Part shown: positions 43,966-50,176 of the stretch, piece by piece | How positions within the stretch are numbered: position 1 is the first letter of the stretch | How the letters are laid out: every line of letters starts with the position of its first letter | Assembly: GCA_030613565.1 (NCBI GenBank) | Contig: JAUWLS010000003.1 | Location: 1-63,841, forward strand | DNA length: 63,841 nt | Direction of reading: 5' to 3' | Source: Candidatus Shapirobacteria bacterium | Lineage (GTDB): Bacteria; Patescibacteriota; Microgenomatia; UBA12405; JAUWLS01 | Program-made: the position numbers and the translations under genes | Notes under the pieces: model-generated | Seen by the model: the letters and a program-made list of their open reading frames with translations, nothing else | What the model was told of the DNA's origin: nothing | The model's database searches: none

Positions 43966-44325
43966 TTAAGGATCCATAACCGTCCCTTTTTGATCCATTC
44001 CTCCCCACGGTTCGTCTAATCCAGAACCCTGAACTTCCCAAACAGACCTAGGAGGTCTTCCTCTATGTTTCACTGTCTGTTTGCCCCCTCTTAGTCTCCT
44101 ATAACTATCAGAGTGTCTTCTGGCTTCAATTGGATCAACCTCATCACCATTTGCGATTCTTCTTGCCAACATTGCATGTCTGGTTAGATAAGCAGCTACC
44201 CCTACCGCACCAATACCCAGTCTTCTTATCTTCTGTCTCTGTCTCAAACTCAATAACTCCCCAACCCCTTTCCCGAACCCAGGTCCATCCAAAACATTCC
44301 CCTCTCTGCCTTTTCTAGTACTCAT
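43966..44325 (-). CDS. Hypothetical protein
   Basis: Likely start ATG 44325 (MSTRKGREG), 6 nt after TATAAT; one hydrophobic segment. Confidence 0.55.
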   Translation of the reverse strand: MSTRKGREGNVLDGPGFGKGVGELLSLRQRQKIRRLGIGAVGVAAYLTRHAMLARRIANGDEVDPIEARRHSDSYRRLRGGKQTVKHRGRPPRSVWEVQGSGLDEPWGGMDQKGTVMDP

Positions 44326-45801: not shown

Positions 45802-48318
45802 TTACCTCACCACAAAGTTCACCATTCTCCCAACCACATAAATCTCTTTTACAATCTCTTTGTCTTTTATCCATTCTTTTACTGCTCCATCTTCCCTAGC
45901 CAGCTTTAAAATTTCTTCCTGGTCATCCACTTTATTAGTCTCCACTTCTACTCTCCCCCTTACTTTCCCATTTACTGACACTGGAATCTCTACTTTTTCA
46001 TCCAAAAGATATTTCTCTTCCCATTTTGGCCAAACAGACCAATGCACTGATCCCTCATTTCCCATCCTCTCCCACAATTCCTCTGATAAATATGGCGCAT
46101 AAACTCCCAACACCTTTATAAGCATCTCCTTTTCTTTCTTTCCTAACTCGTCTTTTTCCTTCCCCAACTCATTTAAAGCCTTCATTAAAGCCGCCACTCC
46201 TGTATTAAACCTAATTCCATCAACATCCTCACTCACTTTCTTTACTGTTTTGTTCACTATCACTTTTACCCTATCACTGCTAACCACATCCTTTTTACCA
46301 TTACCTATCAGCTTTTCAAATCTTTCAAGAAACCTCCTCACCCCTTTTAATGCCCTGTCATCCCAAGCCATCGTTCCCTCATAAGGACCAATAAACATTA
46401 AGTACGTTCTGGTTGCATCCACCCCATATTCTTCCCAAACATCATCGGGGCTCACTCCATTTCCTTTACTCTTACTCATCCTGTTGCCATCTGATCCCAA
46501 TATCACTCCATGAACCACCCTCCTCTGATAAGGCTCTGATCCTGGTACTACTCCCAAATCATAAAGAAACTTATGCCAAAATCGAGAATAAAGTAAATGT
46601 AGTGTCGTGTGCTCATCTCCTCCAAAGTAGATATCAACTGGCATCCACTTCTTTAACTTCTCCATATCCCCCAACTCTTTATCATTCTTACTATCCACGT
46701 ATCTTAAAAAGTACCAGCTTGATCCTGCCCAGTTAGGCATCGTATCTGTTTCTCTCTTTCCTTTTCCTCCACAATTTGGACACTCACACTCTACCCACTC
46801 GGCAATTTCAGCCAAAGGAGACTCTCCTGTCCCCGTTGGCTCATACTTCTCCACTTCTGGTAATTCTATTGGTAATTCTTTTTCAGTTACTGGAAACCAC
46901 CCCACCACTCCCTTCTTCTGCTCTTTTGAAAGTTTAAACTTACTCTTAAAGTTTTCTCCTTCCTTTGTCTCCCACCAACTTATTTCCTTTTGAGCACAAC
47001 TCTTACAATAGACCATTGGTATTGGTTCTCCCCAGTAGTGCTGTCTTGAAAAAATCCAATCTCTCAAGTGATAACTCACTGCTTCTTCACCAATCCCCTT
47101 CTCTGAAAGCCACCCAATTGTTTTCTTTATTGCCTCCTCCGGCTTCATTCCATTAATGAAATCAGAATTAATCATCTTTCCCTTACTCACTTCCTTATAA
47201 GATCCCTTGGAATAATCCCAATCTTCTCCGGTATCAACTACTGGAATAATGTCTAATTTAAACTTTGTTGCAAACTCCCAATCCCTCTGGTCATGAGCAG
47301 GCACTGCCATAATCGCTCCTGTCCCGTAACTACCCAATACAAAGTCACTTACCCATATTGGAATTTCCTTATCATTCACTGGGTTTATCGCCACCAATCC
47401 GGTATCCACTCCTGTTTTTTCTTTCGAAAGTTCCGCCCTCTCCAGTTCCGACTTATTTCCCGCCTCTTTTACATAATCTCTTACCTTCTGGTCCTCAAGT
47501 TCCCCTACTAACTTATGTTCTGGAGCTAAAACCATAAACGTTACTCCCCATAAAGTATCAGGTCTGGTTGTAAACACCTCCAACTCTTCTTCTTTTCCCT
47601 TCACCTTAAACCTAACCTTGCCCCCACTACTCTTTCCGATCCAATTTCTCTGCGCCGCTACTACTCTTTTGGGAAAATCTATTTCATCCAGGTCCTCTGA
47701 CAATCTGTCCGCATACTCCGTAATCCTTAAAACCCACTGCGAAAGGTTCTTTTTTCCTGCCTTAGATCCACATCTTTCACACTTTCCATCCACCACCTCT
47801 TCATTAGCTAATCCGGTCTTACAGTCAGGACACCAATTGATTGGTTTCTCTTCTTTAAAGGCTAATCCCTGCTTGAAAAGCTGTAAAAAGATCCACTGTG
47901 TCCATTTGTAGTAAGAAGGATCTGTTGTATTCACTTCCCTATCCCAGTCTACTGAAAAAGCCATTCTCTTCATCTGCTCCCTAAATGTATCCGTATTTTC
48001 TTTAGTCACTTCTTGGGGTTTTCTGCCCGTTTTTATAGCATGGTTCTCTGTGGGTAGTCCAAAAGCATCCCAACCCATTGGAAACATTACTTCATTCCCT
48101 TCCATTCTCTTTTTCCTCGCATACACATCTGCTCCCACCATCGAAAAGGCATGTCCTACATGAAGTCCGCTCCCCGAAGGGTAAGGAAACTCCACCAACA
48201 CATATTTTTTCTTCTTAGCACTCTCATCCTTCGCCTGATACCACCCCTCTTTTTCCCACACCTCTCCCCACTTTTTCTCGATTTCTAAAAACTGATTTTT
48301 TTTATTTTTTTCTTCCAT
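45802..48318 (-). CDS. leuS: Leucyl-tRNA synthetase
   Basis: EFPYPSGSGLHVGH (HIGH), GWDAFGLP.EN, FTTRPDTL.G editing domain, RMSKSKGN (KMSKS), C-terminal VNGKVRG. Confidence 0.97.
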   Translation of the reverse strand: MEEKNKKNQFLEIEKKWGEVWEKEGWYQAKDESAKKKKYVLVEFPYPSGSGLHVGHAFSMVGADVYARKKRMEGNEVMFPMGWDAFGLPTENHAIKTGRKPQEVTKENTDTFREQMKRMAFSVDWDREVNTTDPSYYKWTQWIFLQLFKQGLAFKEEKPINWCPDCKTGLANEEVVDGKCERCGSKAGKKNLSQWVLRITEYADRLSEDLDEIDFPKRVVAAQRNWIGKSSGGKVRFKVKGKEEELEVFTTRPDTLWGVTFMVLAPEHKLVGELEDQKVRDYVKEAGNKSELERAELSKEKTGVDTGLVAINPVNDKEIPIWVSDFVLGSYGTGAIMAVPAHDQRDWEFATKFKLDIIPVVDTGEDWDYSKGSYKEVSKGKMINSDFINGMKPEEAIKKTIGWLSEKGIGEEAVSYHLRDWIFSRQHYWGEPIPMVYCKSCAQKEISWWETKEGENFKSKFKLSKEQKKGVVGWFPVTEKELPIELPEVEKYEPTGTGESPLAEIAEWVECECPNCGGKGKRETDTMPNWAGSSWYFLRYVDSKNDKELGDMEKLKKWMPVDIYFGGDEHTTLHLLYSRFWHKFLYDLGVVPGSEPYQRRVVHGVILGSDGNRMSKSKGNGVSPDDVWEEYGVDATRTYLMFIGPYEGTMAWDDRALKGVRRFLERFEKLIGNGKKDVVSSDRVKVIVNKTVKKVSEDVDGIRFNTGVAALMKALNELGKEKDELGKKEKEMLIKVLGVYAPYLSEELWERMGNEGSVHWSVWPKWEEKYLLDEKVEIPVSVNGKVRGRVEVETNKVDDQEEILKLAREDGAVKEWIKDKEIVKEIYVVGRMVNFVVR

Positions 48319-48377
48319 AAAACAAAAACCTCCCTTACTGGGAGGTCCAAAAAAAGTCTTCCGCCTCCCGGAGTTTA
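48319..48377 (-). promoter_or_regulatory. leuS attenuator: antiterminator and terminator/SD-sequestering hairpin
   Basis: ACCTCCC-AGTAA-GGGAGGT-TTTTGTTTT immediately before the leuS ATG; a competing GGGAGG lies at 48369-48364. Confidence 0.8.
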
Positions 48378-48410
48378 TCTCAAAAGAAGTAAAAGGCTCT
48401 TATAAAACAT
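48375..48410 (-). CDS. Poly-Leu leader peptide MFYKSLLLLLR
   Basis: ATG TTT TAT AAG AGC CTT TTA CTT CTT TTG AGA TAA; extended -10 TGGTATAAA 6 nt upstream. Confidence 0.8.
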   Translation of the reverse strand: MFYKSLLLLLR

Positions 48411-48518
48411 CCCCTATTTATACCATCCTGACACAAAAATTACCACTTCCGTACGGTCACACTTTGCTATAACAGCATTCTCATCAAAATAAATACTTAT
48501 CTCTATTCCCTCTTTCTC

Positions 48519-48878
48519 CTACCTCCTTCCTCTTGCTACCCGAACCTGCCTAACCCTTGCAGACCTAATCTCCGGACCGCAACCCACACCTTCCTGAACT
48601 ACATGAGCTGTTTGATCATAACCACTCTCTACTTGAACGTCCACTCCCCCGGAAGGAGAAATACTACTAATCCTCAAAACTCTCTGGCCTAGACCGATTT
48701 TACCAACATCACCACCAACTAGAGCAGAAACATTGCAACCTAAATTCCTAGTAGTAAAATCACAACTCCTCCTTTCTCTTCCGCACCCATCAACCACTGG
48801 ACCACTTAAGATGGCTCGATGCCTAACTCCACCCCCCTCTCTCCTTGGAAGATAGCTTATTGTAATTCCACCATTCAT
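48519..48878 (-). CDS. Hypothetical protein
   Basis: TAGAAT 7 nt before the ATG; - strand codon style; no motif. Confidence 0.45.
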   Translation of the reverse strand: MNGGITISYLPRREGGGVRHRAILSGPVVDGCGRERRSCDFTTRNLGCNVSALVGGDVGKIGLGQRVLRISSISPSGGVDVQVESGYDQTAHVVQEGVGCGPEIRSARVRQVRVARGRR

Positions 48879-48956
48879 ATCTCTTATTCTACCAGAACTA
48901 CCACCTTTTAATCATAACCACTTGCTCCCCCCAAAAAAAAGACCTATACTCTCTAT

Positions 48957-49292
48957 ATGGAATCAAAATCTGACTCCGGCTTTGCAAACATTCCCAACAT
49001 CCTCATGCTTGCTCTTCTTCTCGCTGGACTAGGTATTACCCTTAGAGCCACCACTCTCCGTACCGTTACTCAGCAACAAGCCGCCAAATACTCTCCTCGT
49101 GGCTACTGCTCTGATACCAAAACCCTTGTTGTCACCCAAAATGGACAAATCAACGAAGAATCTTGTTCCTATCTCTGCCAAGAAGGTGACTGCTGTGGTG
49201 GAATTGACCAACCCTGCTGTCCAGATCCCGAACTCTCCCCTATCTGTGACCAGAAAATGACCTGTCTAAACGACGTCTGTAAACCCAACTAA
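48957..49292 (+). CDS. Small Cys-rich exported protein with prepilin-like N-terminus
   Basis: KSDSGF followed by a hydrophobic helix; 10 Cys in the C-terminal ~60 aa; TATACT 6 nt before the ATG. Confidence 0.65.
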   Translation: MESKSDSGFANIPNILMLALLLAGLGITLRATTLRTVTQQQAAKYSPRGYCSDTKTLVVTQNGQINEESCSYLCQEGDCCGGIDQPCCPDPELSPICDQKMTCLNDVCKPN

Positions 49293-50176
49293 TCCAATAC
49301 AAACCCAATCTCTCCCTCTTTGTCCGTCCTTCTTATTTCAATCCCTCTTTCCTCTACTCTTCCCAAAACCTCCTCATTTGGATGACTGTATCCATTTCCT
49401 GCTCCTACTGAGAAAATAACCACTCCTGGCTTCACCCTATCCAGTAGTTCAGCCGATGTACTCGTCTTTGACCCATGATGCCCTGCTTTTAAGATATCCA
49501 CCTCTTCATTCAAAATTTCCCTCCACACCAACCTCTGCTCTACTTTTACCGGAGCATCTCCCATCAATAGAATCTTCTTCTCTCCCACCTCCAACATCAT
49601 TACTAACGATCCTTCATTTGCATCCTCCCATTCTCCCCCTTTCTCTGGTGCCAAAACCTCAATTTCTACTTCCCCAAACCCTATTTTCTCTCCCTCACTC
49701 AAAACACTAGACCACACTTCCTCTTCTCCCACTATTCTTTTCACTTCCTTCCAGGCCAAACTCTCCCCTTCTGCTCCATTTGAAAAAAACTTCTCTACTT
49801 CATACCTATCAAGTACTGAAACCAGCCCTCCTACATGATCCAGATCTGGATGTGTTGCTATTACTACCTCAACTTTCCTGTCCCAAAATGCCATACTCCC
49901 TTCCAAACAATCTAATACCGGACTTTCTTTCCTGCCCATTACTACTCTTCTCGTCTCTTCTTCTAATTCAGCCACTCCTTCATACTCTTCAAAATCCCAA
50001 CTGTAAGGTCCTCCATCAATAAGCACTTGAACACTCCCCTTGCTAATTAAAATAGAATCTCCCTGTCCTACGTCACAAAATACTATTCTAGTTTTTCCAT
50101 CCGGAAACGTAACCACAAACAACCCTACTAAAAACAAAACTCCCAACAAAAGAACAATCCAGCTTCTCTTCTCCAC
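49289..50176 (-). CDS. ComEC-type metallo-beta-lactamase-fold domain (stand-alone)
   Basis: FCDVGQGDS, LIDGGP, THPDLDHVGG, N.GSLV, LMGDA, LKAGHHGSKTS, GYSHP. Confidence 0.9.
   Translation of the reverse strand: MEKRSWIVLLLGVLFLVGLFVVTFPDGKTRIVFCDVGQGDSILISKGSVQVLIDGGPYSWDFEEYEGVAELEEETRRVVMGRKESPVLDCLEGSMAFWDRKVEVVIATHPDLDHVGGLVSVLDRYEVEKFFSNGAEGESLAWKEVKRIVGEEEVWSSVLSEGEKIGFGEVEIEVLAPEKGGEWEDANEGSLVMMLEVGEKKILLMGDAPVKVEQRLVWREILNEEVDILKAGHHGSKTSTSAELLDRVKPGVVIFSVGAGNGYSHPNEEVLGRVEERGIEIRRTDKEGEIGFVLD

Follow-up and report, generated by a model that had tools for sequence, protein, structure and literature searches.

The gene for leucyl-tRNA synthetase (leuS) of Candidatus Shapirobacteria bacterium (GenBank assembly GCA_030613565.1; GTDB lineage Bacteria; Patescibacteriota; Microgenomatia; UBA12405; JAUWLS01) is located on contig JAUWLS010000003.1. 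Positions 1 to 63,841 of the forward strand of this contig were analysed, and this whole stretch of 63,841 nucleotides is referred to as the window. Directly upstream of leuS lies a short leader with a promoter, a small open reading frame (sORF) containing a run of Leu codons and a terminator-like hairpin; this leader is the subject of the present analysis. An earlier reading made by a model from the letters alone (the sequence-only reading) had described a −10 box, the sORF, a GGGAGG segment, the hairpin and an overlap of the hairpin with the Shine-Dalgarno (SD) sequence of leuS. Every statement of this description was correct, and direct inspection of the sequence placed all elements on the minus strand at the following coordinates:

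48417..48425, minus strand: extended −10 promoter TGGTATAAA, with the hexamer TATAAA at 48422-48417
48375..48410, minus strand: leader sORF MFYKSLLLLLR, 11 codons and a stop codon (ATG TTT TAT AAG AGC CTT TTA CTT CTT TTG AGA TAA)
48381..48395, minus strand: five consecutive Leu codons (CTT TTA CTT CTT TTG), the proposed regulatory (stalling) codons
48364..48369, minus strand: region 2, GGGAGG, complementary to CCUCCC at 48345-48340 and the putative 5′ strand of the antiterminator
48340..48348, minus strand: region 3, GGACCUCCC, the 5′ arm of the terminator and alternative partner of region 2
48326..48334, minus strand: region 4, GGGAGGUUU, the 3′ arm of the terminator, which holds GGGAGGU
48319..48328, minus strand: T-run TTTTTGTTTT, which reaches the leuS start codon; its first three T also pair in the stem
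45802..48318, minus strand: leuS, the gene proposed to be regulated, coding for leucyl-tRNA synthetase (LeuRS, 838 aa; Pfam PF13603, the editing domain, PF00133, PF09334 and PF08264)

The promoter TGGTATAAA is separated from the ATG of the sORF by only 6 nt (TAGGGG). The stop codon is followed by ACTCC (5 nt), then by region 2, the spacer CGGAAGACTTTTTTT and the hairpin, which consists of GGACCTCCC (48348-48340), the loop AGTAA and GGGAGGTTT (48334-48326). A consensus terminator scan called a terminator-like site with 9 pairs at this hairpin. The ATG of leuS is at position 48318, and the only SD-like sequence available to it is the GGGAGGU in the 3′ arm of the terminator, 9 nt from the ATG. 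No second promoter was found between the terminator and leuS and there is no room for one; thus, all leuS expression from the leader promoter has to cross this element.

The leader is very likely a ribosome-mediated (leader-peptide) transcription attenuator through which the charging of tRNALeu determines the level of leuS expression. Tandem cognate codons are present in a short ORF ahead of the gene, an intrinsic terminator is located between this ORF and leuS, and the antiterminator and the terminator are mutually exclusive. The geometry also fits: with an assumed E. coli-like footprint, a ribosome on the stop codon masks region 2, whereas a ribosome stalled on the Leu codons leaves it free. 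From this anatomy the transcription start, the translation of the sORF, the stalling and the response to leucine can be predicted. Transcription would start approximately 6-7 nt past the extended −10 box, and the RNA would begin at or beside the AUG of the 11-codon ORF. When Leu-tRNA is plentiful, the first ribosome would reach the UAA and its footprint would cover the GGGAGG 5 nt downstream. With region 2 masked, CCUCCC would pair with GGGAGGU, and hairpin and U-run would terminate transcription just before leuS; in read-through RNA with the terminator formed, the leuS SD would be sequestered. When Leu-tRNA is scarce, the ribosome would stall at the first codon of the five-Leu run, 12-24 nt upstream of the stop, and leave region 2 free to pair with region 3 as soon as the latter is made. 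The terminator would then be blocked, RNA polymerase would enter leuS and the SD would be exposed.

The chance expectation for such an element was determined in the same genome (G000; 858 kb in 36 contigs, estimated to be 97.6% complete). Altogether, 10,938 ATG-started ORFs of 5-31 codons were found on both strands, only six of which have at least five consecutive Leu codons. The chance that such a Leu-run ORF starts in a given 110-nt strand-specific interval is about 4e-4. A further genome scan looked for short ORFs that contain a run of one amino acid and have, downstream, a terminator-like hairpin as well as a segment able to pair with the 5′ arm of this hairpin. This gave 11 candidates, with two far above the rest: the leuS leader and an ORF coding for MKITSFFFFTHFQD on contig C10. 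Two features would fit a chance ORF in T-rich sequence beside an ordinary promoter and terminator: Leu codons are rich in T, and the leader taken as a whole has no unusual stability. We consider this possibility practically negligible, since only the six ORFs with such a Leu run exist genome-wide, the element is found again before leuS at no fewer than 28 loci from six families, its frame, start and stop are kept, and hairpin and Leu ORF occur together.

This recurrence was determined first within the order. leuS was found in 109 of its 132 genomes (and leuS orthologues are present in all 41 of the 41 relatives), and 100 regions, each with at least 120 nt of upstream sequence, were analysed. 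A script detected a short ORF with at least three Leu in six residues, followed by a terminator-like hairpin, in 22 of these 100 regions. A covariance model built from 21 leaders recovered the held-out leader L017 and added three more (L111, L125 and L184). After allowing for duplicates the leader is present at 25 of approximately 99 distinct leuS loci, distributed over three families (f1, f2 and f4) and at least 15 genera. All 22 curated leaders carry a TGnTAnAAT-like box 5-9 nt before the start of the sORF. Just one of the 76 leuS loci that lack the Leu leader has a strong terminator-like hairpin within 160 nt. The sequence-only reading had named a hairpin conserved without the Leu run as the outcome that would speak against it; instead, hairpin and Leu ORF occur together, with this single exception. 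A −10 box is located 4-10 nt before the leuS ATG in 36 of the 76 loci, which suggests that leuS itself is probably leaderless there.

Each leader peptide has a Leu run (LLL to LLLLL) and then one or two further residues at its end (LLLLLR, LLLLA, LLLD, LLLTR, LLLLG, LLLLN, LLLS, LLLLK and LLLLV, each followed by the stop codon), and apart from this its residues and its length are freely variable. The six Leu codons stand in for one another, while the Leu run, the start codon and a stop one to two codons past the run are kept. This synonymous variation indicates selection on the encoded amino acid and not on the RNA sequence. A stricter run that was blind to the amino acid found 19 leaders with Leu and none with another residue in the leuS regions, and 12 with Phe, two with Leu and one with Lys in the pheS regions. 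Fisher's test for Leu versus Phe at leuS versus pheS gives approximately 3e-7 (computed by hand from these counts).

The distance from the stop codon to the beginning of region 2 is 2-9 nt in all leaders, and in each of them region 2 is complementary to the terminator's 5′ arm. The two segments change together: GGGAGG/CCUCCC, GGGGUC/GACCCC, GCCGGG/CCCGGC, GCGGGGUU/AACCCCGC and GGGGGCUU/AAGCCUCC were found as pairs. An alignment-free permutation test was chosen for the antiterminator, since its G-runs shift within the alignment. In the 22 leaders the duplex of regions 2 and 3 has a mean energy of −13.2 kcal/mol for cognate and −10.5 kcal/mol for non-cognate combinations (permutation p = 5e-5). 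Compared to shuffled region 2 sequences the mean z is −2.5, and 18 of the 22 leaders have z < −1.64. For the terminator helix the MAFFT alignment A1 had misplaced the 3′ arms, and the sequences were re-aligned to the first covariance model (alignment A3, 25 sequences). On A3, the observed covariation score was reached by none of 500 shuffles, and slid controls peak at register 0.

The position of the hairpin bears on a purely translational switch, in which the hairpin hides the leuS SD and stalling frees it via the GGGAGG decoy, with no regulated termination. The SD overlap seen here, with the hairpin arm as the only SD-like sequence, is likewise found in L008, L164 and L177. In many homologous leaders (L019, L118, L140, L148 and L021), though, the hairpin is 40-110 nt upstream of leuS and cannot be the SD. 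Moreover, hairpin and T-run are kept in all of these leaders, and every case fits the pattern of an intrinsic terminator. Control at the level of translation only is therefore unlikely. Since the distant hairpins keep the terminator form, sequestration of the SD is more likely an add-on in the present lineage.

The switch itself was modelled with a ribosome footprint assumed to be E. coli-like, which spans −15 to +12 relative to the first A-site nucleotide. A co-transcriptional snapshot, in which the RNA ends at the hairpin loop, before the 3′ arm, took the place of full-leader equilibrium folding with masks. In this snapshot, a ribosome placed at the first Leu codon gives a median occupancy of the 5′ arm of 0.79 across the leaders, compared to 0.33 for one placed at the stop codon; the leader studied here has 0.87 and 0.48. 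Ribosome-free snapshots have an intermediate occupancy (median 0.43). In about half of the relatives, folding of the free segment yields the antiterminator as the minimum-free-energy structure. In this leader the antiterminator duplex (−14.4 kcal/mol) and the terminator (−14.2 kcal/mol) are nearly equal in energy.

Several observations weigh against attenuation as described above or limit it. At full-leader equilibrium the terminator is favoured here whatever the state of the ribosome (P = 0.75-0.98); about 9 of 21 leaders switch clearly at equilibrium (terminator probability ≤0.2), and this one is not among them. The stability of the whole leader is no better than that of shuffled sequences (z = −1.1). 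Pairing between regions 1 and 2, the classical safeguard against untranslated read-through, is weak, consisting of C/U-G pairs. The leader is absent from about three quarters of the leuS loci of the order, including that of the closest relative, G001 from the same genus (L005/L190), and it is thus dispensable. In addition, the leader sequences are related, and the counts are not independent events; the E-values of the covariance model are rough. If the attenuator works as proposed, the equilibrium result means that the decision must be kinetic, as it is in classical attenuators, and we infer that the switch depends on co-transcriptional kinetics. The RNA folding that had been suggested as a check gave a divided answer, with the expected shift in the co-transcriptional snapshot and no switch at full-leader equilibrium here. 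A G-U-rich pairing of GGGAGG with the Leu codons had also been put forward: RNAalifold does propose five C/U-G pairs between the Leu codons and region 2, but they show little covariation and are only suggestive. The absence of the leader from G001 shows that the attenuator is gained or lost even within one genus. In G001, a TGTAAAAT box is located 6 nt before an ATG approximately 30 residues into the LeuRS alignment, and a TAA lies in frame upstream.

The second outstanding candidate of the genome scan is a poly-Phe leader in front of the phenylalanyl-tRNA synthetase gene pheS. It lies outside the window:

contig C10, 25055..25011, minus strand: poly-Phe leader sORF coding for MKITSFFFFTHFQD, followed by a stop codon
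contig C10, approximately 24982-24962, minus strand: terminator of the pheS leader
contig C10, 24946..23930, minus strand: pheS (339 aa)

The sORF directly follows rplT, and the ATG of pheS comes 64 nt further on. TGTAAAAT is found 8 nt before its ATG, and it contains four consecutive Phe codons and a fifth further on. GGAGGTTT follows one nt past the stop codon and recurs in the 3′ arm of the terminator, AAACCTCC-TAGTT... GGAGGTTT, which is followed by a T-run. Leaders with a Phe run are present at 12 of 30 pheS loci of the order, and several secondary matches of the model within the order are located directly upstream of pheS. The suggestion to look for conservation upstream of leuS and of other aminoacyl-tRNA synthetase genes was thus borne out at both genes. 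At the level of sequence, the poly-Phe twin shows the cognate-codon logic of these leaders, with Leu before leuS and Phe before pheS.

The twin also bears on two explanations that do without stalling. Control could be non-ribosomal, with a protein such as LeuRS or an uncharged tRNA binding to the leader and the short ORF being incidental. Aminoacyl-tRNA synthetase genes are often autoregulated, as in E. coli thrS, where a protein binds the synthetase leader, or are controlled by T-boxes, and T-box-like elements do occur in some relatives. Neither a T-box nor any other Rfam family matches the leuS leader, and this genome is without a T-box match. What is kept in the leaders is a start codon, an in-frame Leu run with synonymous changes and a stop codon at a fixed distance to region 2; this is a signature of translation, not of a binding site. 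Together with the change of the codon run to Phe before pheS this makes non-ribosomal control very unlikely. The other explanation is that the sORF codes for a functional hydrophobic micropeptide, co-transcribed with leuS and with an ordinary terminator behind it. In its favour, hydrophobic peptides of small size are common and the sORF has a good promoter. But conservation is limited to the Leu run and its distance to the stop, the composition of the peptide follows the downstream synthetase (L for leuS, F for pheS), and a micropeptide would give the covariation of the antiterminator no role. We regard this explanation as less probable still. Ribosome-stalling attenuation, as the sequence-only reading had proposed it, is supported by the joint conservation of sORF, region 2 and terminator, by their covariation and by the poly-Phe twin. 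The anatomy, conservation, covariation and cognate-codon logic of the leader are established here.

A second covariance model was run on 401 genomes of the class. Altogether, 98 genomes matched, and the best 30 loci were inspected, with Pfam used for the identities of the downstream genes. Among these 30 loci, Leu-run leaders precede leuS in three further families of the class (L199/L202, L200 and L219), coding for MKFLLSLLNLNLLLLEK, ...SSLLLRN and MKFLSLLLLQVA, each followed by a stop codon. Phe runs precede pheS at L204, L217, L215 and L211, the last one with an N-terminal extension. The same arrangement of promoter, sORF, G-rich decoy and terminator carries other codon runs in other genomes of the class (L201, L203, L206, L207, L208 and L214): Phe/Tyr runs (FFFYFY, FSFGNFF) before 3-deoxy-D-arabino-heptulosonate 7-phosphate (DAHP) synthase, which is confirmed by Pfam at L201 and assigned by sequence resemblance at L206; an FYFYF run before an enzyme of the phosphoenolpyruvate (PEP)-mutase family; and CCC runs before a pyridoxal phosphate (PLP)-dependent enzyme (PALP, PF00291), read as cysteine synthase-like, as well as before a PIG-L/LmbE-type deacetylase. 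Two LVLLLTR-type Leu leaders do not fit the cognate-codon rule. One (L205; G379:C1, approximately 257951-258040) is located before a 59-aa ORF, tRNAVal(GAC) and a thrS core, the other (L213; G355:C38) before an S-adenosylmethionine (SAM) methyltransferase. Outside the class, no Leu leader before leuS was found in 400 phylum-wide genomes with the covariance model, a search that used stricter filters and has limited sensitivity.

That the transcript is leaderless or nearly so had also been suggested, and the genome as a whole agrees with this. Among 508 long ORFs, approximately 85 have a TAnAAT motif that ends 5-9 nt before the ATG; the distribution peaks sharply at 5-6 nt, and SD-like motifs are much rarer than such near-ATG −10 boxes. 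The TATAAA of the leuS leader, 6 nt before the ATG, falls inside this peak. Judging from the promoter spacing, the leader transcript is probably leaderless or near-leaderless.

The best-known relative of these leaders is the E. coli attenuator pheM-pheST, in which a leader peptide with Phe codons is encoded between rplT and pheS. The gene order and logic of E. coli rplT-pheM-pheST are matched in this genome by rplT, the MKITSFFFFTHFQD sORF, the terminator and pheS. The leuS leader shares with pheM-pheST the control of a synthetase gene by a leader peptide with cognate codons and the alternative antiterminator and terminator hairpins. It differs in using Leu codons before leuS, in its probably leaderless sORF, in the 3′ arm of the terminator doubling as SD, and in having only three clear segments (2, 3 and 4) with weak 1:2 pairing. 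Phe_leader (RF01859) was also the best match in a permissive Rfam search, with 21.6 bits, which is below the 55-bit cut-off, and by sequence the leuS leader is not a member of this family. At gathering thresholds no Rfam family was found in the window. In enterobacterial leuL (Leu_leader, RF00512), a Leu-codon run within a short leader ORF acts as the sensor of Leu-tRNA that governs a terminator, as proposed here. leuL controls the leucine biosynthesis genes leuABCD, though, which are absent from this genome (no PF00682 or PF00180), and RF00512 had no match at E ≤ 10.

T-boxes (RF00230) before aminoacyl-tRNA synthetase genes of Firmicutes fulfil the same task, raising synthetase expression by antitermination when the cognate tRNA is poorly charged. 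They are approximately 200 nt long and bind the uncharged tRNA directly, with no need for translation. Unlike this, the leuS leader shows no T-box signal. RF00230 has no match in the window or, at E ≤ 0.001, in the whole genome, while control genomes do match. T-box-like elements were found in 13 of the 41 relatives, one of them above the Rfam cut-off (111 bits), and in no relative with a match is the element next to leuS. Examples of these RF00230 elements are:

G029:C1:124586-124846
G002:C2:145931-146235
G001:C12:3071-3382

T-boxes and leader-peptide attenuators therefore coexist in this order. The contrast with Firmicutes drawn by the sequence-only reading, in which T-boxes belong to the latter, holds for this genome and not for some of its relatives.

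Classical attenuators have been predicted before leuS and trpS in Streptomyces avermitilis and S. coelicolor (Seliverstov et al., 2005, PMC1262725). The Streptomyces leuS attenuators have the same gene, a Leu-codon leader ORF, an antiterminator and a terminator with a poly-U tract; they differ in belonging to Actinobacteria and in being predictions only, and leaderless initiation and an SD overlap are not described there. In mycobacteria, leaderless poly-Cys short ORFs are reported to be Cys-responsive attenuators (bioRxiv 10.1101/834739). They share with the leuS leader a leaderless run of codons for one amino acid at the 5′ end of the transcript and ribosome stalling; they use Cys instead of Leu and precede biosynthetic operons, not a synthetase gene. 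Cys leader peptides of Mycobacterium have been reported without obvious terminators (Seliverstov et al., 2005, PMC1262725), in contrast to the canonical intrinsic terminator conserved in the leuS leaders here. In the literature, no paper was found to connect attenuation or leader peptides as understood here to the candidate phyla radiation (CPR) or Patescibacteria. This agrees with the sequence-only reading, which was not aware of such an element in CPR; attenuation of leuS as such had been predicted before, in Streptomyces. The leuS leader has two modest peculiarities, the probable leaderless start and the terminator arm doubling as SD. It extends a known mechanism to a new phylum and adds no new principle.

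CTT, TTA and TTG are the three commonest Leu codons of the genome (31%, 22% and 16%), and the Leu codons of the leader are read by three tRNALeu isoacceptors (GAG, UAA and CAA); five tRNALeu genes are present. Since the codons are common and three isoacceptors are involved, the sensor would sample the overall charging of Leu-tRNA and not a rare isoacceptor. No gene of the LeuA type (PF00682) or of the LeuB/Icd type (PF00180) was found in this 97.6%-complete genome, whereas both were found in 14 of 14 control genomes. Judging from its gene content, the organism is probably a leucine auxotroph, in line with the amino-acid auxotrophy that the sequence-only reading had presumed. Without leucine biosynthesis genes, the sensed leucine must be imported.

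The nearest upstream ORF of recognisable function on the same strand (49289-50176, minus strand), which we take from its motifs, without a family search, to code for a comEC-like metallo-beta-lactamase domain, ends approximately 870 nt from the leuS leader. The hairpin as terminator of this comEC-like gene was ruled out, because the gene ends approximately 870 nt upstream and the leader promoter lies in between. The stretch of approximately 860 nt between this promoter and the ORF (48430-49288) contains two small ORFs only. Neither the G-rich 119-aa ORF (48519-48878, minus strand) nor the 111-aa ORF (48957-49292, plus strand), which has a hydrophobic N-terminal stretch and a Cys-rich tail, has a Pfam match. 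Since a gene with a similar C-terminus ends directly before leuS in L014, L022 and L028, the stretch 48430-49288 looks like an insertion. The GC skew is very strong between positions 44000 and 53000 of the window (−0.3 to −0.85, minus strand G-rich), and a similarly strong skew is known in Microgenomates of the order UBA1400 (PMC7143001). A LeuRS search of genome contigs returned mostly Firmicutes; the close relatives were labelled 'Patescibacteria group bacterium' and 'Candidatus Amesbacteria'.

CPR/Patescibacteria are ultra-small, uncultivated bacteria with genomes of less than 1 Mb that depend on others for amino acids, and to our knowledge almost nothing is known about gene regulation in this group. 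A conserved switch that can be read from the sequence would mean that CPR cells still tune synthetase levels to tRNA charging, and that they do so by coupled transcription and translation on probably leaderless RNAs. The device appears to be modular, with Leu, Phe, Phe/Tyr and Cys versions. In practical terms, the analysis yields a covariance model for annotating such leaders, compact parts for reporter assays and a way to infer the amino acid tied to a downstream gene of unknown function. On whether leaderless leader-peptide attenuation is the main amino-acid sensor of the class, filling the role that T-boxes have in Firmicutes, we are evenly divided. If this is true, the leuS switch of this organism, which lacks leucine biosynthesis, would report leucine taken from its host or surroundings, and the codon runs could label the amino-acid specificity of uncharacterised downstream genes.

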